NCBI GenBank assembly: GCA_044892525.1
Contig: CM097886.1
Location: 66,712,001-66,776,000, forward strand
Direction of reading: 5' to 3'
DNA from: Schmidtea polychroa
Taxonomy: Eukaryota
Length of the DNA stretch: 64,000 nucleotides
Both the position numbers and the translations under genes were made by a program. The notes below the pieces were generated by a model that was given only the letters and a program-made list of their open reading frames with translations, made no database searches and had not been told where the DNA came from. Of this stretch, positions 7,724 through 62,200 are shown piece after piece. Within the stretch, counting starts at the first letter, position 1. Each line of letters opens with the position of its first letter.

Positions 7724-10700
7724 TTAGAATTCTTTCTTCATCGCCCCGAGAGCAAGTAGATAATCACAGTCAAATACTTTAATCTTTAAGTCTAGCGAAA
7801 AGATTTTATTTCGCATTTGCAGAAACTTTAAAATCACGGGAGCTTTAAACATTCCTCCACAGAAGTAAATCTAAATCAAACAATAATATTTTATTTAATA
7901 AATAAATACCGTTTTCAATTTATGAGTTTTACACAATTGAATTACGTGTATCATGGTTTCGTTGAAAAATAAACTGCTTAAAGATTCCAGTAAATCATCA
8001 GGGGAAAAATTCTCTTTTCCTTTATTGTAATCTGCACTTTTACCATATGAAAAAATCGGTAGATGTGGTGGCATTTTCCCATATGGTGATTTCTCATTGT
8101 CCGACATTACTTCCCATACTTGAGTGTCGGTATTTTCTCGATTGCCTTTATTTGCTTTTTCCATGACTTCATCATAATTCTATTTATATTATGTGATTAG
8201 AGAAACAATAANNNNNNNNNNNNNNNNNNNNNNNNNNNNNNNNNNNNNNNNNNNNNNNNNNNNNNNNNNNNNNNNNNNNNNNNNNNNNNNNNNNNNNNNN
8301 NNNNNNNNNNNNNNNNNNNNNNNNNNNNNNNNNNNNNNNNNNNNNNNNNNNNNNNNNNNNNNNNNNNNNNNNNNNNNNNNNNNNNNNNNNNNNNNNNNNN
8401 NNNNNNNNNNNNATTAATTCATATACATTCATATAATTCATGTAAGTTGAAAAAGTGACACAGTTCACTGACTTTACTATTCAGTAAAAACAGCTGTTCT
8501 AATAAAAAAAAACTGATTAATAATTCAAAACTTTTGAGAAATGCAATTGAAAAGCCTTATGAATGGCATAAACAGCAATCAGCTTTTATAACTAATAATA
8601 TATTTTGAAATAAATATTTAACAAATTCTTTTTCAATTTCCAAGCATTTCTAATCACATACTTCATAATTGCTCTTATTAAAGATTTTGTCAACCAGAAC
8701 ACGCTTTCCTTTCAGGACTTAGATCTCTAGATTTATCAGATTCTTTATAAACATTGTATGCAAACTTCGAGATATTCTAAATTTAACAAAGCCTGTGATA
8801 TTACTTATATTTTAGCATTCTCAGTAGCACTGAAACCTTCCTTCAAACAGTGCTTCATACTAGATAACATTTCCCATCTTTATTGACAAAATAATTAGAA
8901 AACTAAATAAATATCTGAACAGTAGAAATACGTGATTATGTAAACCACAACTAAAATCGTCATTTTATGTCACTACAAATAATTGATAAAGATTATCTCA
9001 ACATTTCACAAAATAAATGAATTCTCACATTGGAATCAACCAGACATTTACAGAGACCTCTAAAACTTTCTCCTCCACAAAACGTTGAATTTAACAGTTT
9101 AACTGATTTATCCTTTCTCACTAAAAAATATTTAAAGCTTGAACCAGCCAATACCAAAATATTCGGAACAGTGATGGATTCATCATCCTCAGGAGTTTCA
9201 CTGTCAGTTTTAATTTGCATCGCTCTTACAAACTAAAAATTTTTAAATATATTTAAAATTAGAACTATAAATAGTGCAAGAAATGAATCAAAAATTTTTC
9301 AATTTTCATTTTCAGAAAGTCATGAATTTAAAACAAAAAAAGAGGTTTCTGCTTTTGAGGAAAGTTTAAATTTAATTTAAATTTAGTTTTTAACAAAAAA
9401 ACATTATCACAAGATGAGCTCAAGGCATACCAAAGACAGGCTAACATAAATGATTAAGGAAGTCTCCTAAAAATTTATTATATATGGGTTGTCTTTTTCG
9501 TATTCAATATACTTCTAAGTGTTCAAAATTTAAAATCAGATTGAAAAATTTTACCTAGTATAAAAATTTTAATTAGAAATTAAATTAACGTTTTTTTTAA
9601 AAATAATTTTTAAAAAATAAAAAGTAAATTTTAAAAATTTCACAAAAATCATCGAGAGTTTAAAAACAAAGTTCTAAACCGAAAAAGTCTCCATCAGCAT
9701 GGGCTTCTCCGATTCTGTATTAGGAAAAAATATATAAGACTTAATATGAAAAATAATATTTAATAAATTAGCAATAATAAAAATAAAAATAAACCAGGGG
9801 CTAAGTCTGTCAAATATAATAATCTTAAAGATGGCTTCTTTAATTTAAAATTTAAGGATTAGGATTATTCCCATAAAATTTTTACACAATATATTCACAA
9901 TTTCAGTTGACTCGAAAGCATAAATCTGATTTAATTGAACTCAACTCTCAATGAATAACTATTTTACAAATTTATCCTCGATCTGACTGGAAAATTTCAT
10001 GTACTGCTTTTAGTTCTTCGACAAAAATGACAATTTGCATTCCAAATTATCTAACTAATATAAGACCGTTCTCCATTAATAATCCTTGGGAATCTTCGCT
10101 TAAATAACATATGAATCAAATTTTGTATCCTGATATTGTCGAAATTGACTTTCTTTTTCTTTCTGATGGTGATTGATGGAATCGATAAATTTTTAATTAA
10201 TTTATATTTAAAAATTATATACACCAAGAGAGCGATTTTCATTTAATAAATAATTTATTTGTATTTATTTTTTTAATTACCATCTGTTTCCCGATTTCTC
10301 CCAAGATATGTTAACTTTTTAGTCTGTAGTTATTTACCTTTAATTATTATTGATTAATTTGACATCTCATATGTATCTGTTACAGTTAAAGTATAAACAT
10401 AGACAATTAACTAATTAAAGTTTACATTGCAGTTTTAAATTCAGTTAAAGTATACAGTCACTAGTAAAATTTTTAGACAATAATAAACTGTATATTATAT
10501 CTAGGTAGTATGCTGTATTGCAACATGGAATGCTAGAATAACATTTATGTATTTTATTAGAGAATGTAAAAATTTTTTGTATATGTATACATTTAACTCT
10601 CACATATCTACTTAATTTCTGATTAATTTAAATAACATTATTATAAATATATGAATATCAAAAAAACATCGATATATTTACTGATACATAGTCAAACATT

Positions 10701-17605: not shown

Positions 17606-18082
17606 TGTAAATATTTACAAATTAAATAAATAAAAAAATTAAACAAGTTCAAAAATTTGATGTCATTTTATTTTTTCTTCATAAATTCAAATATGATTAG
17701 TTTTTTCCAAATTTCACAACTGATTATTTCACTTGAAAAAGGCAGTGCCGAAAATTCGTGAGTATCAAAAAACATCGATATATTACTGATTTATAGTCTT
17801 CAAGCTCTCTTTTTAATAAGTTCAATGATTAGTTTTGTCTATAATATAGACAAAACTAATCATTGAACTTATTAAAAAGAGAGCTTGAAGACTATAAATC
17901 AGTAATATATCGATGTTTTTTGATACTCACGAATTTTCGGCACTGCCTTTTTCAAGTGAAATAATCAGTTGTGAAATTTGGAAAAAACTAATCATATTTG
18001 AATTTATGAAGAAAAAATAAAATGACATCAAATTTTTGAACTTGTTTAATTTTTTTATTTATTTAATTTGTAAATATTTACA
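17606..18082. repeat. Long palindrome, 238-bp arms with a 1-nt spacer at 17844
   Basis: The arms read as reverse complements from TGTAAATATTTACAAATT to AATTTGTAAATATTTACA; no mismatch was seen by eye. Confidence 0.95.
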
Positions 18083-27080: not shown

Positions 27081-27725
27081 TTTTAGCGAAGTTGATGTTA
27101 TTTTTGTTTAGTTTTTATATGATATAAGTTTTGTTATTTTAATTGTGCAGTAATCCATCTTTATAATTTCATTAAAGAATAATTTTTAATTTCTACTGTT
27201 TTGTACTACTTAATAAAAGTTAGAAGCTGTGAAGATGTTAAGTGTCACAATTGACTTTTTTAAAAATTTTCCTTTGTGCTTTAAGTGCTAACAACCTTTT
27301 ATATTAACTCTGTGACTATTACTAACTATAGCCGGTTAAAATTACGGGAAGAAAATCAAATTTTTTACTACATTTTCAAAGAAATTTTTTTATTCATTTC
27401 AAAAGCGCTTTAGTTAAAACATTTTGTGGTTATTTTGGAATATTTTAACAATCTATCCTCATTGAAGATCANNNNNNNNNNNNNNNNNNNNNNNNNNNNN
27501 NNNNNNNNNNNNNNNNNNNNNNNNNNNNNNNNNNNNNNNNNNNNNNNNNNNNNNNNNNNNNNNNNNNNNNNNNNNNNNNNNNNNNNNNNNNNNNNNNNNN
27601 NNNNNNNNNNNNNNNNNNNNNNNNNNNNNNNNNNNNNNNNNNNNNNNNNNNNNNNNNNNNNNNNNNNTTTTTGTCGGATGTCTCACTTGAATAAAATAAA
27701 CAGTACAAGCTTTGTGATACCCAGT

Positions 27726-27788
27726 GCAAATCCCAATAGTAGACTAGTTTCGAGCTTTTGGCTCTCATCAGTACTATGCAGGAAACGC
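27726..27788 (-). ncRNA. Type I hammerhead ribozyme with short palindromic helix III (retrozyme/Penelope-like)
   Basis: The minus strand reads GCG-UU-UCC-UGC-AUAGUA CUGAUGA GAGC-CAAAA-GCUC GAAA CUAG UC^UACUAU-UG-GGA-UU-UGC. This gives both conserved core boxes, a 4-bp helix II, a 6-bp helix I with an extension, and a GUC cleavage triplet (cut between 27742 and 27741). Confidence 0.88.
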
Positions 27789-28010
27789 GAAGATTTCTCT
27801 TCGTGCCAGGTATACAATATTGCTGATTCAACTCTATTGCATACTTTCCCCGGTACACTGGAAATCACATCACTTGCAAATAGCTTGGTCACAGAAAAAT
27901 CTGTAAGCTTGTAAACATGGCGTATGAAAAATTATTATTATTATTAGTATAAAGTGATGATTTCATGGTAGCAGCATTTATTATTTAAAACAATCAAATG
28001 ATAATTTAAG

Positions 28011-28139
28011 CCTTTTGCTGCAAATAATGTATTTAATGAAAATATTTTCGACTATAAGATAGTCCTTGTCAAGGAGATTGTTAAGGACTATCTTATAGTC
28101 GACATTTTTTTCATTAAATACATTATTTGCAGCAAAAGG
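28011..28139. repeat. Foldback/hairpin MITE-like repeat running into a gap
   Basis: CCTTTTGCTGCAAATAATGTATTTAATGAAAA...TCGACTATAAGATAGTCCTT pairs with AAGGACTATCTTATAGTCGA...TTTTCATTAAATACATTATTTGCAGCAAAAGG. A related sequence lies at about 61081-61210. Confidence 0.8.
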
Positions 28140-28682
28140 NNNNNNNNNNNNNNNNNNNNNNNNNNNNNNNNNNNNNNNNNNNNNNNNNNNNNNNNNNNNN
28201 NNNNNNNNNNNNNNNNNNNNNNNNNNNNNNNNNNNNNNNNNNNNNNNNNNNNNNNNNNNNNNNNNNNNNNNNNNNNNNNNNNNNNNNNNNNNNNNNNNNN
28301 NNNNNNNNNNNNNNNNNNNNNNNNNNNNNNNNNNNNNNNNNNNNNNNNNNNNNNNNNNNNNNNNNNNNNNNNNNNNNNNNNNNNNNNNNNNNNNNNNNNN
28401 NNNNNNNNNNNNNNNNNNNNNNNNNNNNNNNNNNNNNNNNNNNNNNNNNNNNNNNNNNNNNNNNNNNNNNNNNNNNNNNNNNNNNNNNNNNNNNNNNNNA
28501 TTGGTGTTTTTTATTTATTTTTTACACATGAAGGAAATTCTGCCTCTATGGATTCTTGATAAATAATATCTATTTCTTAGAAAAACAAATGAAAACAATA
28601 TAATTTTTGCAATTTTTATAATTGTTACATTGCAAACATATTTAAGCACTGAAAATTCTTAAATCACAATTGTATTTGTATA

Positions 28683-31600
28683 TCATTTTTCCAGGGCACC
28701 CAAAGCAAGAATATAATCCACATGTAAAAGCTTCGTTTCTATTAGCATTGGCATAATCATTTCACTAAGTTGAAGAATTTTGGAAAATATTGGATAATTA
28801 AATATATCTCCACAAAAATAAACCTAAACCAATTAATATCTATTTTCATTCAAAAGGAAATTACATATTTTATCTTGAAAGCCTTGCATAACGTTTTTAT
28901 TTGATGATTTATTTCCATTAAGAATAAAAAACTCAAAGACTCCAACATGTCGTTCGGGATGAAATCCTCTTTACCTTTATCATAATCGGCACATTTACCA
29001 AAAGAGAATATCGGAAGATCAGGAGGAAATTGTCCATATGGTGAAATTGGATTATCAGACAAAACTTCATAAACTTGTGTATCGGTTTTCTCTCTATTAC
29101 CTTTATATGCCAGCAACATGTTTTCCTTGAAATTCTAAATTTTCAAATTATGAATTTGTGGACTTACATATAAACATTACAAATATTAATTATTTTTCAT
29201 CAAATAATTTAGTTGAAACTTACAAATGTTCACTGACAAATTTACAATAGTTATTATTTGTTTTAATAATAGTTATTTGTTTTATTATTTACATTTTAAT
29301 TTTTATTATACTATACAAAAAGATACCACTTTATACTTAAAATATATAAAACATGCACAATAAAATATTACTTATAAAATAAAGACTATTTTTGAAGAAA
29401 AAATAATCTAATTATAAAAAAATGAAAAAGTTACTATGATTATTGAGAACATCTGAAAATTTAGGATCAACTAAAACATTCATAAAAAGTCTAAATTAAA
29501 CATTAAACATTCAACTACACAATTCAGCCATATGGGTTATTTAAAACTCGCTCAACATTGCTTTATACAGACTTGGTAGCTTTTTATTTTTACAGTTGTT
29601 GTTCAAAATATATATTAGATTCAGTGATTATTTTTAAAGTAGCAAAGTCAGAACGTGCTTGCATGATGAATGTTGAATTCTGGCTTCTCAGGTTATAATG
29701 TTAAATAATAAAAATAATAAAAAATGACATAATCTGAGGAGCCACATATTAAACATTCATTAAACAGCCATGAAGACATTATTACAAAATAATTATAAAG
29801 GTTTACATAATACACCAATCCTTCGAATTACGCGGTACCCATTTTACGTGGTTTCACTTTTACGCGGTCATAAAAAATAATATTTTTTAATGAAATCAAA
29901 CATATTTGGTGGCAAGTGTCTCTCAGTGACATCGATGAATTGTTTATTGAAAAGGAAATAGACGAAGAAGAATTGATTTATATGGTGTCAAGAAACGAAC
30001 AAGAGAATGTTGAAAGTAGCGTTGATAGTAATATTACTAATAAATCAAATAAATTTACATGTAAAGACATTTCTGAAATTTTACAATTGGCCAGTAACTT
30101 AGAAAATAAGGTTTTGGCCACTGATCCTGATATTGACCGTGCTGTTAAATTTCAGCGAGACATTAAAAGCCTTTGCGCACAATACAGTGAAATTTACAAA
30201 GATTTAAAAAAAAAGAAAAAACAAAAATTGGTTACAGACTATTTAATAAGACGAGAAGAAGAGCATCTGCTGGATTTGAATCCGATGATAGCAGCGATTT
30301 CGAGCCAAAAAAAAAGAAAAAATTGGTTGAATTAGTATATAGTAGTGAGGAGGCGGAATAATTAAATTACAATTATTCCTTTTAATATACCTTTTAACTA
30401 TGAACATGTTATAAATTTTACAATTTAAAATTTAAATGTCAATTTTTTAAATCTATTTCTAAATAAAATTGTATTTTTTAATGCCTTGTTTTACGCGAGT
30501 TTCTGGAACCTATCCCCTTACGTTATATGAACTGGAAGTCTCGATTTATGCAGATTTTTATTTTCTGGAACCTATCTATCATTTTTGTATGAATTTGAAA
30601 TGTCGATTTACGCGGTTTCGATTTGCGCGTTAGTTTCTTGGAACGTAAATCTAATATCTCATTACAATTGCATCACAACCAAGTTAATTAATTTATTAAT
30701 AAAAGTAAAAGTGTAAATTTGTTTTCGTATTTTTTTAAAAATCCAACAATAATAAAAAATAATAATATTATACAATATTTTCATAATGTAATGATTGTAT
30801 ATTGTTGTATTTTCATGATATTACATTTATAGAACGACACAATTCACGTATTAACACTGATAAATTTTGTAAATAAATAATTTCTACATCTTACATTTGA
30901 ATCGACAAGACATTTAAATAGACCCTTCAAGGTTTCACCAGCAAACATGGAATAGGAAATTAATTTCGCTGTTCCATCACTGCTCATTAAATAAATTTTA
31001 AAAGCCGAGCCACCCAATACAACGATGCTTGGAAAATTTATAACACTCTCACCGGATTTTGTGGCATCTGGCGTTGAAACCTGCATTGCTTCAATAAACT
31101 GAAATATTAAAACATTATTAATTGCTGCATACATCTATTTTTATTGAAATAAATTAAAGAAATACATTTCATCTGTATTATACTATGTTTCTTTAGTTGT
31201 ATAAAAACCTTTTAGCATTATTAACCATTCCTATTATTGGAATAGTACAATCAATGGAGTCAATACCAATCAGTCAGCAATACAAGAATACATTAGGGAA
31301 CCAGCTGATAAAACTGTAAGACTGTCTAAATCTTTACAAGAATACACATCTTATTTCATCATGTTGTTATAAGTCGCCCCATGAATACCAGAAGTTGGTA
31401 GCAAAATCAAGGGCAAACAATCAAGAGCAATATAACAAAGTTTTTCTTTGATATCTCGCACAATTTCTCTTTCGGCCGTAGTTGTAAAACTGTATCCTCT
31501 GCCTGTCATAATTTTAATTGGATAATTAGTTAAGTCTCTTCCGGCCGAATCAATTCTCAAAATAGCATGAGGTAGAGTATATGCTTCATAAATTGACAGT

Positions 31601-34600
31601 GTGCGGTAGAACAACTGCGGAATCTAAAACAATGCCTGTAGTTCTTCCTGAAGCATAAAACGACAGCACACATTGAATAGGCATCGTACATAGGAGGAAC
31701 ATTGAATGTTTAAAACATTATTTGAGTCACTTGGGATTCAGTGGCACTTCGAAAATAAATCCACTCGTCAAAACGTTTATATTTTAGACACAAAAAAACG
31801 AAATTGAAAGCATCAGAACAACAACACCTGGAATACAAATTCCAGAAAATTCAAAAAATAATTCTACTTAACAAAATCACCTTACAATTAAACAAAAAAA
31901 CATCCAACTCCTCGTATCTATGTGCTCACCCAACAGACAAAGCCAAATAACTATTGCGCACACTGACGCGACAACCGAAATAAAATAGCTATAGGATTCA
32001 ATTCTTCAGTCATAAGTCAATAGTTTTTAATAAATCTATTTCAATCAAATAATGTAAAATTTAATTTAACAATCTCACAATTACTAAACAAATGTTTACA
32101 AGACAAATAATAATTCTGATATTTTTATATTTTATATATTTTTACAGACATAAAATTTTAAGATTCAATATTTTCATACATTATTTGAAATTATAGTTTA
32201 TTTATTTATTTTTATTTTTTATTAACATTTATATTTTTTGAAACCCTTCTATATAAATATTTGAAATAACTTTTTAAAATAATTTTCATTCTTAACTTTT
32301 GTGTTTGTTAATGTTCTTCCTCAAAATTAGCATGGAATATACTTATACAAGGAGACATTGACACTTAACCCGTGGCTCCCTAAATATGATAGATCATGTA
32401 TACAAGGGGTTCAGACTATTTAAGTTTCCAAAATGTCGTAGATCATTATTAAATTCAATAAAGATTATATTTACACACACACACACACACTGAAAATTTA
32501 AATTATGTGCTACGATAAAATTCATTTTCTGGAATGCTCGAAATTAAAAAAAGTTTCATTAACCATTAAAACAAATGATAATTAAAATCACAGATTGAAT
32601 ATTTAGTTGTAGGAGTTAGGAAAAATTATAAAATTTTATCAAGATAAAAAAAAATATTAAAAATATTAATGATAACAATCAAAAGTCACTTGAAAATAAA
32701 ATTCATGTCTGTCATTCTACAATGGTAAATGAAAATACATGACCTTCAATTGTGATAATAATTGACATTTACTCACACAATTTAAATAAATAAAAACCAC
32801 CAAAATTCAATTATGAAAAAGTACAATTAAAACAAACTATTTGCATTCACAAGGTTCCTTCAAAATAGCCAAAAAATACAAACATTTTAGAAATGAATAG
32901 TTATAATCTAAGTTAAATTTAATTTATCTTAAGACATTTTTTTTATAGCATAAATCTTCCATCGAATTCATTTCTCCACAGCTTAACTCCATTTTGGTTT
33001 GGATGCCCTCATATTTGCAATAAGTGATTATTTAATTAATTAAACAAACAGCATTCTTTTTCGGACGTCGTTTTCCGAACAATATTGAATTCATGTAAGT
33101 TGGTCGTTATTACATGTAATAAAGATGAAAAAAATTATTTACTTTTTTAAATTTTAATATTGGACAATTTTGAGAAAGTTACTTTGTTGGCATTGTTTGC
33201 AATAAGTCATGCTGGTGGGCTGTTTTGTCGGGTCTATTTTTGACAGGGTACCATTTATTAAAAAAAAATTTTTGAATCCTCTTCCCTCAAACCATAGAAA
33301 TTGATATTTTTAATAATTTTATTAATTTTATTTTGATGCAATAAATATTTTCATGATTAAATTAATATAATATTATAAAGATGTCTTTTTGGAAATATTT
33401 TATTTCCATTTCATTTTTATTTATACTTTCGAAAAATGTCATTTTTACAATTTTATTCGATTAGTCTTTTATTAATTTGATGTTATATCAATCATATTAT
33501 ATGAGGTATCCATAAAGTCTGAGTAGCTAAGGCTTCTGAAACGATTTCAGGGGAAATTGAAACCGAAATATATTCTGCTGTTTTCAGTGGGTTTTAATTT
33601 ATGATCCATATATTTGCCATATAATGGTCAGCAAATACGAAATATAAAATATCTTAAATAGTTACAAACCATTCCAAATCTAGTCTGTCGTGGTGCACTT
33701 GCAATACTTTAAATTGTTTCCTATTTTCATAAGTATAAAGACAATTGTAGCTTTGTTACAATATGTGATAGAATGAATCTGTTAAAAGCAAAAGAAAAAA
33801 GAAACACTTAAATTATTGTTCTTGCTAATTTTCAACATGTCCATCATCATTACTAATACAAAGTGGAATACAATTCTGTAGTTTTCAGAAAAAAATTTGG
33901 AGCTGATTTTCATAAATGCCAGTAATCATAACTGCTATCCTGTTTTCCAAATGAATACTAAATAACATTTTTAAAGACCAAAATCCTAGATACTTCAAGC
34001 TTCCTAATCCGTACAGATTCTCAGATATTTTTAATTTCACACGAACTTTATGATGTAAATAATTTGGACTAAAAATATAATGACCACATTTTATTATTAA
34101 TTTATTTTATATTTCTTTGACACTCACTTCTTTTCTAACAATTTGTTAAATTTTTGTTTTAATGAATAGAAAACAAAATATTGATTTATAATCCAAAAGA
34201 AATAAAGATAAAAAATTGTAAATAAAAATAGATCAAAAGTGAATAAGTAAAAAGATTTTAATCTTTTAACTGGTGAATTTACTTATGAATATTATTAAAA
34301 TGACTAGTCTGTTTAGTGAAGCCTTTCAGTATGAGGTTTCTACGAGTGTTTAAATGTATAGTATAGAGCAGGGGTTGGGAACCTTTTTATATCCATAGGC
34401 AACATTGAAATTTGTCGCCTTCAAATGGGGCCACAGTCAAAAAGTATTTTAATATTAATTATTTTCATTTTAAATCTTTTGTTTATATACAGTTAGTAAT
34501 TAAAACAATGTTTATAATCAGCCTCCAGATTTGAAAAATGCAGCTGTACGAAATATTTTGGAAAATGTTTATTATTTTTGAATCGAAAAATTGATGCAAA

Positions 34601-35994: not shown

Positions 35995-38900
35995 TCACAA
36001 TTTAATTCGATTAACAATGGACTTCATATTAAGCAATTCGGCATTGAGATTCTTTTCATTAATCAAAAAGAAACATCGGATCAGGGAATCGGTTGTTGCT
36101 TTGTCAACCAAATATTTTCTCCAAGCCTCCAGACCTTTACTTAACAAAAGCTTTTGATTGTATTTTCCCCTGTAGGTGGATTCAAGTTCAGTAATTACTG
36201 ATTCGGGAATTCGAAGTTTACGAAACAAATGTCGAGTCCTCGAAATTGGGAATTTATTGCTGATGATTGGCATTAATTTATCGAGAATAGTAGCTAAAAT
36301 ATGAAATAAAATTATACAAAAATATGTAATGTTATTAAAATCTTTTATCGTTTTCATCAGTAATTTATTTTCATTTTCAGTTTTCATTAAATTCATTCTT
36401 TTCATAATAGTGATCAGTATTTTGTTTTTATTTGAAATAATTTTCGCACAACCAAATAAACATTTGAAGATGACTTTGCCGAACATTCGTGTTAAATATA
36501 AAACTAAATATTGATTTACAGTCTGAAAAAATTTCGCAATAGAGGAAATAAATAAATAAAAATATTATTTATTTAAATAAAAAAATTTTTTAATTTGTTT
36601 AGTTTTACTTTTTAGATGTAAAGAAATTGTTAAAAGAAAAGAATTTTCATTATTCAATTTAATTAAAATTATTTTAGTAGAATAAGACAGTTGTTATGCT
36701 TTTTAAGTAGTCGAAATAATAGGTAGTTAGTGGCCCTCTGGAGCAGACCATACCACACCTAGAGAATATTTTTTTAGTTCTCCAGAAGGGTAATTACTGT
36801 AAATTGGAAATGAGACTGCTCCAGATGAGTAATTTTTAACTACATCACATTTTTCAAACTACAGTCAAGTGGTATTTTTGGTCCTAGGAATTTTTGTACA
36901 CAAAATCTGAGTTTCGGTCTATCTATCCAAACATGATCTATCTAAGCATATAAAATCAAATTTATATAGAACAAAGCCGCTATCAAGTTCTCATCAATTT
37001 TAATATTTTTAAAAGTAGATTTTAATGTGTATGTTACAAGTATTTTATCAGTACTAAATAATCGTACATTCATTCTTCTATTCAAGTTTAGTGACAGTCG
37101 GATTTTGTTTACAAAAATTGTATAGACCTTAAAAATATATTGGCTTTTTAACGAGGACTGGGATTTCGTGACAAAACTATTGAGACCCTCTGACTACAGT
37201 GTGAATTTGATAAAAATACCCTGTCGCCCACTGCAACACAGGATTTTTAGCGAGCCTCGGATTTTGTGTACAAAAAATCCTGAGACCAAAAATACCCTCT
37301 CACTAGTGTGAAAAATGTTATAAAATTAAAAATTACCCACCTGGAGCACTCTCATTTCCGATTTACAGTGATTACCCCCCAGGAATACTAACATAGATTT
37401 TTCTAGGAGAGGTAGGGGGTACCAGAAGGTCTGTTCCTAATACCTACTTGAAATGTCTAAACTCGATTTACGTAGTTCCGAAAGAAAACATCAGTCTTTT
37501 TTTTACATAGTAAAAAATTCCGGTCTTTTTATTTCTAAGTATTAAGAAGAATATTGCATACATTTGAAACTAAAAAAAACAACTCCGTGGAGAAAAAACT
37601 AAAGCATAAATACAACAAATCCTAAATTCCTTTTTACAATTAACTGCAAGGTTAGAGGATAATATCGCTATAAACGTAGTAAATTTGAACATAAAAACGA
37701 AGCTAGAGGTTTCATCTCTAGATTTCATATTTATTTCTATATTTTAATTATATGTACACAAATGTATACACTTGCAATTATGAATGCTTTTCATATTTAA
37801 TTATAATATAGATTTTAATAAGTAAACATTACATTAAAAGTTCTTTTAAAAATAACTTTCATGTTTGTGACTCTCATTTCATTGTACATATTTATTCGTT
37901 AATTTTCGTATGTAAAGCATCAGACAAAGTACCATATGTTTAAAACAAAATGTTTAAAAAGTACATAAGCATGCGTTTAAATCAACGAAAAATGACAGAT
38001 TTTAATAAATAATTTGTATTTATAGTAAATGTGTTGTTTAAATTAGTGAACGCAGTTAAAATGAAATTTCGTAAACTGAACGACAACGTTATGGTTTTGA
38101 TGATAATTGGATTATTTTAAAAATATTTGCGTGTTGTTTAAATATTTCAGATTTTGGTGGGTGTTTTAAAACAAAATTTCATATTTTAATATTTTTCAAC
38201 AAATTTCTCGATAAATGAAGGAAATAAAAATTTCCTAAAAACTGTGTCAAAATTTGCTCTGAAGATTATTATGTTATTTATTTTCAAGGTCTTCAATAAC
38301 TTTTTAATACCCACTACGAACTGATGTATATTACGAATTTCGATTGCATCTTAATTGCATGTTACTATTTATAGATTTATAATGTAATTTATTTCCTAAG
38401 GTTCGCAACTTTGTATATATTATATATTAATTTATTAAATAGGGAAATTAATTTTACCATCCAATTCACTGTATGCCGTAAGATAGCTGCATATTGGAAT
38501 CATTTGTCCACAGTTGTATACATCAGATGGAGGAATTTTGCAGGGATTTCCTTGTAAATTCAAATATCTTAGCTTACTAAATTTCGTAAAGGCGGTTGCT
38601 GGAAGAACTGAAATTACATTGTTCGACAAATCCAAAGACTCAAGTCTGTCTTGAAACTCCAATACAAAACCAGATTCTATCACTTTAATTTTATTTCCAC
38701 TCAATGAAATCGAAGTTAAATTTTTCATTTGAAACATTTGCTCAGGAATCAACCTCAGACAATTATTTGAGAAATTGATTTCTTTAAGATTATTCAGCTG
38801 ACCCAAGCGCTCATCTATTTCTGTTAATTTTTTCCCTTTATCTTGATCGTATTTGAATACTTTCAATGAAGTAAATGAAAAAACAATTTCAAGAATTCCA

Positions 38901-40407
38901 TCACTATTTGTGTTTGATAGATTCAAATTTTCTATACTATTTAATTTGACTATACCGTTTGATTGAATTGATTCGACAGGATTATCCGACAAATCAAAAT
39001 CGATTATTGATTCGGGTAGGCATGGAAATGACTGAATTCTGTTTCTACTCAAATTGAATGTCTGCAATCGTGTCAAAGATATTATTGATTCCGGAATTGC
39101 CTCGATTTCATTGGCTGTAATTTCAATGGAATTTAATGTAGCGATTTTTGTGAGAATTTCCGGAAAATTATTGAATCTATTATTTGATAAGTTAATTTTT
39201 CGAAGAGATTCCATATATTCCATAATTACCGGCAAAGAATTCAGTTCATTGTTGCTTAGGTCTAAAATTTGCAATTTTTTGAGAGAACCAAAAATTTCCG
39301 GAATCTCGCTGATTTTATTATTGGTCCATTTCAAAACGGCTAAAGAAAGACAGTTTTTAAAATCTATTGGCAACTGTGTAATGTGATTGTTACTGATATC
39401 GAGTATTCTCAAATTGTTATAATAACCAAAATCATCAGAAAGAGATGAAAAATTGCATTGATCAATCAACAATTCACTCAACGAAGTCAAGAGAATTGAT
39501 CCAGGTAGATTTGTAATTTTGGAATTTCCAGGAAGATTTAAGTATTTCAAAGATAATAATTCTCCTATATTTGATGGAATTTCGATAAACTTATTAAATG
39601 ATAGATTTAAAACTATTAACTTTTTCAATTTTCCAATATCCATTGATAAATATTGGAGATCATTGTAACAAATGTTTAATTCCAAAAGATTAACCAATTC
39701 AAAGATATACTGAGGCAGATTTGTAAAATTATTATTCCCAAGTTGTAAGATTTCAAGATGTTGTAGTTCTTTAATTGTTTCCGGTAAATTACTCAAGTCA
39801 TTATTATTTACTATTAAACTCGTAAGCTGTTTAAGGGAGCCAACACCGTTTGGAATGGAACCTAAGTGATTGTGACTGCAATCAAACGATAACAATTCAG
39901 ACAGAAAACATAAAGTTTCCGGGAATGTATTTAATTGATTTCCACTTATGTTAAAAAATTGAAGTTTTGAAAAATTCTCGATTAATTCTGACAATACTGT
40001 CAAATTATTATTAGCTAAATCTAAATAAATCAAATTTTCCAAATCAAAAAAAGTGTCTTCCAAATTTGAAATATAGTTATGTGAAAGATTCAAATACGTA
40101 AGAGATGTTAGTTGATTAATTGCTATCGGAATTTCTATTATTTCATTACCGTTTGCTATTAGTCCTTCTAAATCTTTTAAATTACACAATTTATCGATTT
40201 TCTTTACTTTGGAATAGCTACAATTAAGGATATTAAACCTTTCCTTTTCAACGAAATCTTCATTAACACTATCAATTTCTTCTTTTGTTAGAGTTTTACA
40301 AATTTTATTTTCATAAATAAGTGCGTTAAAACTCCTAAATTATATTTTATATCTTACAATTAGGTTTAATAATAAAAATGTTACTTTAAGTTATCGTATT
40401 CAATCAT
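35995..40407 (-). CDS. LRRD1: Leucine-rich repeat and death domain-containing protein
   Basis: Exons 40407-40385, 40334-38458, 36293-35995 (phases 2, 1). More than 20 LRRs end in PPSDVYNCGQMIPICSYLTAYSELD, which splices in frame to ATILDKLMPIISNKF...LFRKLRIPESVITELE...LEAWRK...ATTDSLIRCF (death fold). This LRR-cap/death junction matches the LRRD1 C-terminus as I recall it. Confidence 0.82.
36720..37446. mobile_element. Foldback MITE with long imperfect inverted repeats, in the LRRD1 intron
   Basis: TACTGTAAATTGGAAATGAGACTGCTCCAG pairs with CTGGAGCACTCTCATTTCCGATTTACAGTG, and GGTATTTTTGGTC...TTTTTGTACACAAAATC pairs with GATTTTGTGTACAAAAAA...GACCAAAAATACC. Confidence 0.75.
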
Positions 40408-59468: not shown

Positions 59469-62062
59469 ATGAAAACATTTAATATAGAAAAATCCATTCT
59501 TACAAATTCTGAATGCTTTCTCACAATTGACATTGGAGTTTCAACAATAAAATGCTTCTACCTCGACAAAGAAAATGACCATTATAACGAAAATTCACAG
59601 AATAATGATGTAATTTTTACATTAAAATCTACAAATTTCAACATTCAAATTGAAAACTTTCTACAAAATATCAAATCTAACTTGTCAACTCTTGAAACCA
59701 TTCAAACAAAATTAATATTAATTTGTGGAATTCAATGCAAACATTTTCAGTGAACCTTTGACGATTATAAAAATGAAATTTTAATGATAATCTCTTAGAT
59801 CGGAAATCTCGAAGGTGTTTGGTTGTGAGGTAAAGGTTGTATCAGAAATGACTGCGTTTGCGAATGGAGTGAGATATTTTATAAATCATCATGAAAGGGA
59901 TACATTTTACCATCCACCAGAAAGTGTGTCAAATATGTATGAGCAAGTTCATAGTAAAATGCTGGAAAATGTAATTATTTATATAAAAATTAATTTCAAT
60001 TAATTGTAATTTAGTTATTGAAAAGTTGGAAAGCAAAACGCGAGTTATTATTAAAGGATTCAACGAGTGAAGAATATCCATGTCTCTATGTGAATGGGGG
60101 ATCCAGTTGCCGTTATATATTAGTTGATGAATATGGTAAAGGAAAAGAGATTTCATTTAATAGTTACGGAGGAAGTACTTTCCAAGGCTTAGCAAAATGT
60201 CTAATAGATGAAAATGTAATTTAATTTATTAAGTTATAATCCTATGCTTATAGCTGAAGGGGAGGGGTAGAACTATAATATAAACTTTTTTTTCTTCAGA
60301 GCCATGGCCGTATTAATAAGTTTGAGCGCCCTGGGCTAAATAAAATTTTGCACCCCTACATACTCTTATTATAAAAATTCAATTTTATTTTCAAAAATTC
60401 AAAACTTAAATATGTATTTACGCAAAACAAAATTCAAAAAATTTATATAAATATGTGAATTAAATATTAATTTTTAATTTAAATATGTCTTTTGCGGCAT
60501 TTATTTTTAGCAAATATATCTATAATTTTCTTGTGATCCATTTTCTCAAGGACATCCGATTCTATTGACAAAATACTTAAATTATTTAATTTGTATTGTC
60601 CTAAAGATGATCTTAGATGATTTTTTATTCTCTTGAGAGTTGAAAACGACCTTTCTCCGCTACAATTTGTACAGGCGATACTTAAATATATTCGTAGAGC
60701 TGTTGTTATATTCGGAAAAGTGCATTCAATTTGCGATTCAATTATTGTTATATTTTTTCTCATCCATATAATTTATATGGATGAGAAAAAATATAACATT
60801 GAACACATTACTAACTTAAATCACAGATACGCTAAATATAAAGAAAATTACTTTTTTTTAAATTAAAAAAAAGCAATTAAATTTCACCATATTGTTTTCT
60901 TAGCGCCCCTGGGCTGTAGCCCAATTAGCCCTATGGTTAATGGGGCCATGTTCAGAGCTATTATAACTCTTTTTTGTCAGAGTAAACTTTCGATTTTATA
61001 ACTCTTCAAAAATTATAAATAAAATATTTTAATTTGGTTAAACATTGCTGAATTAAAAAAATACTATATAATATAAATAAAAAGTGATGATTACTTGGTA
61101 GCAGCATCAATTGAAAAGGGCTCCATTTTAGTCGAAATTTTTTTCATTTGTATTAAATATATTATTCGCAGCAAAAGGCCTTAATTATCATTAAATTGTT
61201 TTAAAATAAAAATATATTATAAAATTTTATTACTGCATTAAATCACATACATAGTTTTTATATTTAATTTTTAATTTATTTAATAATTGATTTAATATTA
61301 ATAATTCTTATAATTTTAATTTGATTATGTTAATTTCATCTTTAAATTATTAATAATTTATTTTTGATATATAATCTAACGTTGATTATGATTTATATTA
61401 AAAATATTAGATTAAAATTAAATAGCATTAAATTAAAATTTATCACTATTGCATAGTAATAGTTTAATTTATGTTATTGAGACTCTTATTTATTGTCATT
61501 AAGGTTCTTATTAATTGATTAAAAGATTTAATAATGTTTAATGATTCTTTTCAATTTACATATTTTAATTTAAGAACATAAATAAATTGCTTGCGATGGC
61601 TGAAATTGGAAACAGAGAAAATATTGACACTCAAATCAAAGACGTATTAGATGATAATAAACTGTCCCCATATGGAAAGTATCCACCAAATTTACCTATA
61701 TTTTCATTTGGTAAAGCAATGGATTATACTTCAACTGACAAAATTACATGTCAAAATGAAGACATTTCTCAATCCTTGGTGTCAATGATAGTTGACAATT
61801 CTGTATTCTTTGCTTTAAGGATAGCGACGATGACATTATGTAAAAAGGTTTGTAAAAAAAGTTCTGAAAATTTTATATTAAATGATTTTTTTTAATTTAG
61901 ATTTATTTTGGAGGTAATTTGTTTCAACACAAATCCTTTTTGGTGGAATACTCTAAATTCTGCATCAGGCTACCAGAAACAATAAAGACTCATTTTCTAA
62001 AGTGTGGATTCGAAACAAATATTGGTTTGGTGGTTGAAAATAATCAAACGGAATCCATTTAA
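59469..62062 (+). CDS. Divergent type II pantothenate kinase-like protein, copy F (362 aa)
   Basis: Exons 59469-59749, 59799-59970, 60015-60215, 61575-61847, 61901-62062 give an open frame. Exons 1-3 are nearly identical to copy D. Confidence 0.9.
60303..60950 (-). mobile_element. hAT non-autonomous element carrying the dimerisation domain, in intron 3 of copy F
   Basis: TIR CATGGCCGTATTAA / TTAATGGGGCCATG. Exact 8-bp TSD TTCAGAGC. ORF FPNITTALRIYLSIACTNCSGERSFSTLKRIKNHLRS. Confidence 0.93.
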
Positions 62063-62124
62063 ATTTAGTTTTAAAATAAAACCTATTAGTAATATTTTTT
62101 AATAATAACATTCATAAATAATTT

Positions 62125-62200
62125 ATTAAAAAGAAAGCTTGAAGACTATAAATCAGTAATATATCGATGTTTTTTGATACTCACGAATTTTCGGCACTAT
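62125..62200. repeat. Single copy of the repeat end found at the centre of the 17.6-kb palindrome
   Basis: GCTTGAAGACTATAAATCAGTAATATATCGATGTTTTTTGATACTCACGAATTTTCGGCACT matches about 17883-17944. A degenerate copy lies at about 10660-10695. Confidence 0.8.

Follow-up and report, generated by a model that had tools for sequence, protein, structure and literature searches.

Background

Non-LTR retrozymes have been described in metazoans, and flatworms (platyhelminths) are among the hosts named in the portion of PMC7229834 used here. With these elements, as portrayed in PMC7229834 and in the preprint of Li et al. (10.64898/2026.07.22.740005), the repeat family analysed in this study has in common a unit within 150-450 bp and a GC content below 50% (37% here), a type I hammerhead of canonical form in which the palindromic helix III is short, a highly self-paired predicted circle, and co-occurring Penelope-like elements (PLEs). 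PLEs have been called a 'strong candidate' for moving animal retrozymes (PMC7229834), and both the mover enzyme and the transcription of animal retrozymes are still argued from co-occurrence. What sets our family apart is a head identical to the start of U1 snRNA, of which the portions of the two sources used here make no mention for metazoan non-LTR retrozymes; in addition, two PLE-type 3' ends, inversions and microsatellite targeting have been counted here, in contrast to the retrozymes of these sources. No report of a U1-headed retrozyme was found in the literature searched, though the further invertebrate retrozymes given in the supplement of PMC7229834 may include this family.

The newt/salamander satellite 2 resembles our family in being a hammerhead tandem repeat (~330 bp) that cleaves best as a dimer (PMC7229834, PMC6155905), and an snRNA-type promoter has been reported for it (PMC2220036, citing Coats 1994). 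The link to snRNA differs, being in our family a piece of transcribed U1 sequence with a putative promoter, and satellite 2 may itself have a U1-like head. SINEU of crocodilians (Kojima 2015, PMC4494074) is, like our family, a non-autonomous retroelement with an acquired U1 5' sequence, in the case of SINEU probably through template switching. However, the heads of SINEU are 5'-terminal, the elements are likely moved by Tx1, and no ribozyme is described for them, the term 'hammerhead' being absent from PMC4494074, whereas the head in our family measures 16-19 nt and lies inside a tandem unit beside a hammerhead, in copies with ragged 5' ends, which places the family outside SINEU.

With PLEs (PMC4209133, PMC8557442, PMC11167929) our insertions share 5' truncation, inverted 5' pieces, an optional tail of 30-40 nt, and microsatellite or ATT targets. 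Truncation, inverted 5' copies, tails and a microsatellite bias are given as PLE features in PMC8557442, and a PLE enzyme is reported to cut at ATT and to begin reverse transcription internally, at two sites separated by 30-40 nt, which gives an optional tail specific to PLEs (PMC11167929). Minimal PLE hammerheads with a U3-A8 core have already been described (PMC4209133). The hammerhead of our family, in contrast, is canonical rather than minimal, and its unit has no homology to the two PLE families sampled in the genome.

Results and discussion

A type I hammerhead that is convincing only as a member of a family

We analysed a window of 64 kb, by which we mean the whole stretch of DNA under study, for which a complete type I hammerhead ribozyme had been predicted at 27726-27788. 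Reading the minus strand from 27788 to 27726, we recovered all elements that this prediction had listed. The hammerhead proper (27736-27777, minus strand) consists of a 6-bp helix I formed by AUAGUA (27777-27772) and UACUAU (27741-27736), the core CUGAUGA (27771-27765), a 4-bp helix II capped by a CAAAA loop (GAGC-CAAAA-GCUC), the GAAA, a 2-bp palindromic helix III (A-CUAG-U) and a GUC triplet (27744-27742), with the cut site predicted between 27742 and 27741. The window copy therefore has the CUGANGA core, the GAAA and the NUH triplet that define a type I hammerhead, together with an open-ended helix I of 6 bp and a helix II of 4 bp with G10.1-C11.1, as type I demands; the computed pairing probabilities are 0.86 for helix I and 1.0 for helix II. 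The predicted extension of helix I is also present (UCCUG/UGGGA, 27731-27783, minus strand), but the UGC/UG internal loop said to interrupt it does not appear in the minimum-energy fold, which has a single bulged C and two G-U pairs instead. For the putative contact between loop 1 and loop 2, as in type I hammerheads, a 1-nt bulge thus stands in place of an internal loop, and loop II is altered in organism B (see below).

Taken alone, the motif is modestly supported. The 63-nt stretch has a z-score of -1.75 relative to shuffled sequences, with 13 of 200 shuffles folding equally well; a loose core pattern matches six times in the 64-kb window where 7.05 matches are expected; and scanning the window with Rfam at the gathering threshold gave no hits. 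A covariance-model search had been suggested as a check, and it did return a hammerhead match, albeit a sub-threshold one: Hammerhead_HH9 (RF02275), with 23 bits (E-value 0.0046) in the window and, in a further search, 26.5 bits, both under the gathering cut-off of 52 in a result that gives only the best hit per clan. It is the family that excludes both chance and an error in the consensus, since the exact core plus helix II occurs 1,009 times in the genome (781 Mb, AT-rich, with four large contigs), while a reversed-pattern control yields 0 matches. The possibility that the core bases are consensus errors, which the original prediction had named as a way to be wrong, is thereby ruled out.

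The window copy is a truncated unit of a 378-nt tandem repeat

The hammerhead is embedded in a 5'-truncated retrozyme copy of 282 nt (27650-27931, minus strand), which covers positions 1-289 of a 378-nt unit and is 94.8% identical to a young unit. We used the natural unit L017:1508-1885 (37% GC) as the reference for this alignment, and took the final few bases and the 3' flank of the window copy from the genome's own copy of the locus (L001). The flanks of the window copy are (AAT)n-type tracts. Having a single hammerhead in a lone truncated unit with no tandem partner, it would be at best a weak cleaver and is probably a dead end. By itself, this copy is an ordinary truncated passenger.

A DNA search with the surrounding 472 nt returned at least 109 matches from the best 40 of 4,262 candidates, many of them with a 378-nt period. 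The unit carries one type I hammerhead and forms arrays of up to ~11 units, which are dispersed on all four large contigs. The family hence has the composition of non-LTR retrozymes, namely, tandem units of 150-450 bp with a GC content below 50% and one type I hammerhead per unit, in a genome that also harbors an autonomous PLE. Terminal repeats were not seen in the end maps of the retrozyme insertions, and no RT gene is attached in the insertions examined. An 'active' retrozyme locus as the Li et al. preprint (10.64898/2026.07.22.740005) describes it is represented by arrays elsewhere in the genome, and not by the window copy, which is a single fragment (1-289).

At four separate loci, three on different chromosomes and one on a small contig, the full units of the arrays show 0 differences from the reference unit; only in one array do two of the nine full units depart from it, by the same two changes. 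A fifth array deviates from the reference at 8-10 positions. These near-zero differences between dispersed arrays indicate that the family has spread recently. In the array of ~11 units at L017-L024 (G000:C2:10.176-10.180 Mb), two units lying four apart share two substitutions, one of which breaks helix II. Identical variant units at this distance within one array show that duplication at the DNA level, or a multimeric template, contributes to array structure as well. The core is intact in all 19 independent copies that were chosen for their resemblance to the window copy (30 loci, of which 11 were dropped as overlaps) and in 23 of 27 pattern-picked copies. However, core and all helices are kept in only 12 of the 27 pattern-picked insertions, and two same-strand cores are found in just one of them, so most copies are decaying.

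Folding predictions agree with the behavior expected of a retrozyme. The circular natural monomer is predicted to fold at -119 kcal/mol, compared with -76.7 ± 4.9 kcal/mol for 60 shuffled sequences, none of which is as low (z = -8.6), and to be 69% paired, in line with the highly self-paired circles of retrozymes. The dimer-type palindromic helix III proposed for this ribozyme also holds up in the models: in a natural two-unit stretch, a 6-bp ACUAGU/ACUAGU helix lies 0.9 kcal/mol above the minimum-energy fold, and the ACUAGU duplex has a predicted energy of -6.2 kcal/mol, so that activation through dimers is predicted.

A U1-identical head beside the ribozyme

Positions 121-136 of the unit are identical to nt 1-16 of the U1 genes that Rfam finds in the same genome, and over 19 nt the unit matches a U1 variant with one mismatch; the chance of the 16-nt match is ~6e-8 per unit, calculated post hoc. 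The head lies 46 nt before the core, the combination of head and core start occurs in 838 copies genome-wide, and the exact head is present in 16 of the 19 copies of the similarity-based sample described above. In the window copy itself a remnant is left (27802-27813, minus strand), with four nucleotides deleted and one substituted. Beyond nt 16-19 the similarity ends, and Rfam detects on the unit no U1 match of the kind that a U1 gene with stem-loop I, stem-loop II and Sm site would give. A relaxed pattern designed for a second U1-headed family gave 948 matches; among the 100 of them that were listed, every one looks like a member of the family described here. In metagenome and viral contigs, the pattern of U1 head and core matched 26 times and once, respectively; as none of these matches has more than two helix II pairs, they were rejected as chance hits. 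Divergent U1 variants were seen at L035, L040 and L041; two of them begin with AAACTAACC in place of ATACTTACC, and another forms an array of ~30 copies with a period of 1.7-1.8 kb on contig C4.

On the minus strand of the window copy, the head is accompanied by an upstream complementary arm (27835-27853), by a predicted hairpin with a GAAA tetraloop between head and hammerhead (27786-27805), and by a 3' strand, UUUGCACUGGGUAUCAC (27714-27730), which can pair with the head. The folding models for long RNA and for the circle pair the head with the upstream arm, which would sequester it, and hence the head would be masked in the circle. In an RNA starting at the head, in contrast, the models let the head pair downstream with the 3' strand and so close a junction around the ribozyme.

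The 3' strand also marks the end of the module that is found again in a second organism, B (run X6, of unrecorded library type, one of the 4 runs among the 16 listed from which contigs were compared). The contigs of organism B align mainly from about the third base of the head to the end of the 3' strand, i.e., over ~100 nt, and the letters beside this module are unlike on both sides (13 and 16 contigs, respectively). Loop II and the hairpin are changed in organism B, and no change in the core or in helices I and II is found among the rows listed. Five contigs leave the alignment at helix I, with unlike letters upstream, so that not all related hammerheads of organism B need carry the head. 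A few low-depth near-identical pieces in organism B may be carry-over from organism A. Most likely, a single capture event, with U1 RNA or a U1 gene as the source, gave rise to the head, which has since been kept within a folded module around the ribozyme. Its retention in organism B despite a diverged unit points to a borrowed snRNA-gene promoter or to a link with a splicing factor; for the latter, we found no description for retrozymes in the literature searched.

Retrozyme insertions carry the signature of Penelope-like elements

We mapped the ends of 27 independent insertions, namely, the first 30 of the 838 pattern matches minus three that fell in insertions already counted, all picked regardless of their ends. 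Their 3' ends lie at unit positions 242-250 in 18 cases, at 276-289 in eight, and at 257 in one; they thus fall into two classes ~40 nt apart, at ~50 and ~90 nt past the predicted cut and not at the cut itself. An inverted piece is present in 11 of the 27 insertions, and a microsatellite flank likewise in 11 of 27, against a background of 3.6%. The insertions therefore carry the PLE signature of two 3' ends, 5' inversions and (AAT)n targets.

Searching the genome for the GIY-YIG domain gave 143 matches, and the loci retrieved include two PLE families. A member of the first family (L119) has an uninterrupted ORF of 856 aa with both an RVT_1 domain (E-value 5e-14) and a GIY-YIG domain (E-value 5e-6). 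The 3' ends of this PLE also come in two forms, ~38 nt apart (six long and three short, n = 9), and eight of the nine run into (AAT)n or (ATT)n tracts, as the retrozyme insertions do. We therefore regard it as the candidate helper. A 3' end of this family also adjoins the 5' end of the retrozyme copy in the window, as an inverted pair at 27933-28139 (27933-28072 on the minus and 28069-28139 on the plus strand), a long hairpin that accounts for spurious miRNA matches in Rfam; a minimal hammerhead core of the U3-A8 type lies inside it at 28072 (minus strand).

The original prediction had associated the motif with metazoan non-LTR retrozymes and PLEs. Membership of this world is upheld, but the motif does not belong to the minimal ribozymes of PLE terminal repeats, which are characterized by a short helix I, a usually long helix II with a bulge, and a location in a repeat that flanks an RT-GIY-YIG ORF: both PLE families seen in this genome have other hammerheads, of the minimal kind. 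Moreover, blastn revealed no homology between the unit and PLE terminal repeats at 30 GIY-YIG loci and at six longer loci (four of them new), in contrast to Xenopus retrozymes, for which homology to PLE terminal repeats is described in the preprint 10.64898/2026.07.22.740005. Aligning the 3' end of the unit with that of the PLE gave a score equalled by 20% of shuffles, and one weak match to the unit was seen among the PLE loci (L104, 64% identity, E-value 6e-4). Strong matches at L093 and L123 turned out to be neighbouring retrozyme insertions and were discarded. As no homology connects the unit with PLEs, we infer the helper from the insertion signature only.

Several further PLE remnants were noticed. 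A 3' end of the second family forms a perfect 238-nt inverted repeat at 17606-18082 of the window, with minimal U3-A8 hammerheads at 17733 (plus strand) and 17955 (minus strand), and other remnants of this family lie at 62123-62198 and 10645-10693, while an older remnant of the first family's 3' end lies at 61051-61210. At L118, L119 and L123, TTCCAG/G, resembling a 3' splice site, directly precedes the PLE hammerhead, and at L119 the terminal-repeat copies start at or beside it, as if a spliced or trans-spliced RNA had been the template.

A model for the spread of the family

Taking these results together, the element in the window is a truncated copy of a 378-nt tandem repeat, whose unit has a hammerhead motif and the first 16 bases of U1 and which is present in ~1,000 copies, and we consider it likely that this repeat is a non-LTR retrozyme put into (AAT)n tracts by a PLE enzyme. 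In the cycle that we propose, the tandem arrays would be transcribed, and the ACUAGU palindromes of neighbouring hammerheads would pair into the predicted 6-bp helix III, leading to cleavage after GUC. By analogy to published retrozymes, the released 378-nt monomers would then be circularised by a host ligase. The PLE endonuclease would nick at ATT repeats, and reverse transcription by the PLE enzyme would be initiated internally, either ~50 or ~90 nt past the cut, and proceed to a varying extent on the circular RNA or on a multimer. Such copying would account for what is observed, namely, 3' ends at fixed and 5' ends at variable positions, 5' inversions, and arrays of less than one to ~11 units, and the window copy would be such a product, stopped after 282 nt. 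Since the two-start 'tail' signature of PLEs, identical young arrays, and an intact PLE ORF whose ends and targets agree with those of the retrozyme are found together, trans-mobilisation becomes testable in vitro with a named enzyme and template.

Alternative explanations and the origin of the U1 head

One proposal would add to this retrozyme account: the repeat may descend from a U1 gene, with an internal snRNA-type RNA polymerase II promoter that is still active and from which transcription starts at the head. We regard this as conceivable but doubtful, and hold the same reserve towards its corollary that self-cleavage would release a capped, U1-headed fragment of 76 nt along with monomers. 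The motif TATG(C/T)AA occurs at -68 to -77 in seven of nine distinct U1/U2/U5 upstream regions of the genome; a related word is located at -67 in older copies of the retrozyme and, in the window copy, at 27869-27880 (minus strand; 67 nt before the head, score 5.25). This match is weak, however, because 3.5% of background windows score as high for the older copies and 16% for the youngest subfamily; the best-scoring word of the unit is at -30, inside a hairpin arm; and the motif was seeded on the same genes that were used to test it. In favor of the proposal, the similarity to organism B starts at the head, but that to U1 is absent beyond nt 16-19. The junction closed in head-started RNA is predicted with a probability of 0.51 in two older copies and 0.75 in the window copy, but the pairing between head and 3' strand drops to 0.04 in the youngest unit. 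Newt satellite 2, another hammerhead repeat, is reported to use such a promoter (cited in PMC2220036); in our unit, an snRNA-type promoter is no more than weakly supported. The full version, in which a U1-derived retrozyme driven by an snRNA promoter, conserved in two species and moved by a PLE, makes capped head-first RNAs that are cut into a 76-nt U1 mimic and circles with a masked head, seems to us rather improbable; if it were true, the family would be a selfish ribozyme circle with a switchable spliceosomal recognition sequence. The head might instead have arisen by convergence, as the antisense strand of a hairpin whose formation hides a 5' splice site of the unit, e.g., an intron donor that stems from a PLE terminal repeat. 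Introns are indeed possible in PLE terminal repeats (PMC4209133), and in older copies a donor-like CAG/GTAAAG arm upstream pairs with the head. Yet the match is 5 nt longer than the 11 nt of complement to a splice site (chance ~2e-4) and, in comparison with a U1 variant, reaches 19 nt if one mismatch is allowed, and no copy without the putative intron was found, the two matches to such a form being explained by a microhomology deletion; we therefore deem convergence unlikely.

That the family is an ordinary satellite spread by DNA recombination, with the hammerhead as a passive relic, appears very unlikely to us. The tandem arrays and the repeated variant unit in one array would suit such a satellite, but fixed 3' ends, ragged 5' ends, 5' inversions and mostly single truncated copies fit reverse transcription, and the module, unlike its flanks, is conserved in organism B. 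We give the least credence of all to co-option of the window copy as a regulatory ribozyme of the upstream PanK-like gene, where it would cut read-through RNA and aid termination. It does lie on the same strand, ~750 nt past the stop of the gene, with an intact core; nevertheless, it was inserted recently (94.8% identity to young units), as one of ~1,000 copies, its lone ribozyme has a 2-bp helix III, it is situated ~590 nt beyond the AATAAA at 28519, and in those parts of the window that are readable, no further hammerhead of this kind accompanies another PanK-like copy.

The PanK-like neighbourhood

The location between two PanK copies had been considered part of the prediction, but it looks incidental, since ~750 nt separate the element, which lies within a microsatellite tract, from the stop of copy C upstream (stop at 28683, AATAAA at 28519, beginning of the retrozyme copy at 27931), and nothing was found to connect the ribozyme with PanK beyond their common strand. 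The neighbouring PanK-like genes are paralogous to each other, with 66% identity over one exon, and their matches to the Fumble/PanK family are single-exon matches, all below the cut-off. At least six diverged Fumble/PanK-like paralogues are arranged in two clusters, at 7.7-36 kb on the minus strand and at 46-62 kb on the plus strand of the window, and some of the copies have near-identical exon blocks. A leucine-rich-repeat reading frame of 634 codons (38435-40339, minus strand) lies between the two clusters, and a reading frame at 31354-31623 (minus strand) resembles what we take to be a degenerate actin fragment.
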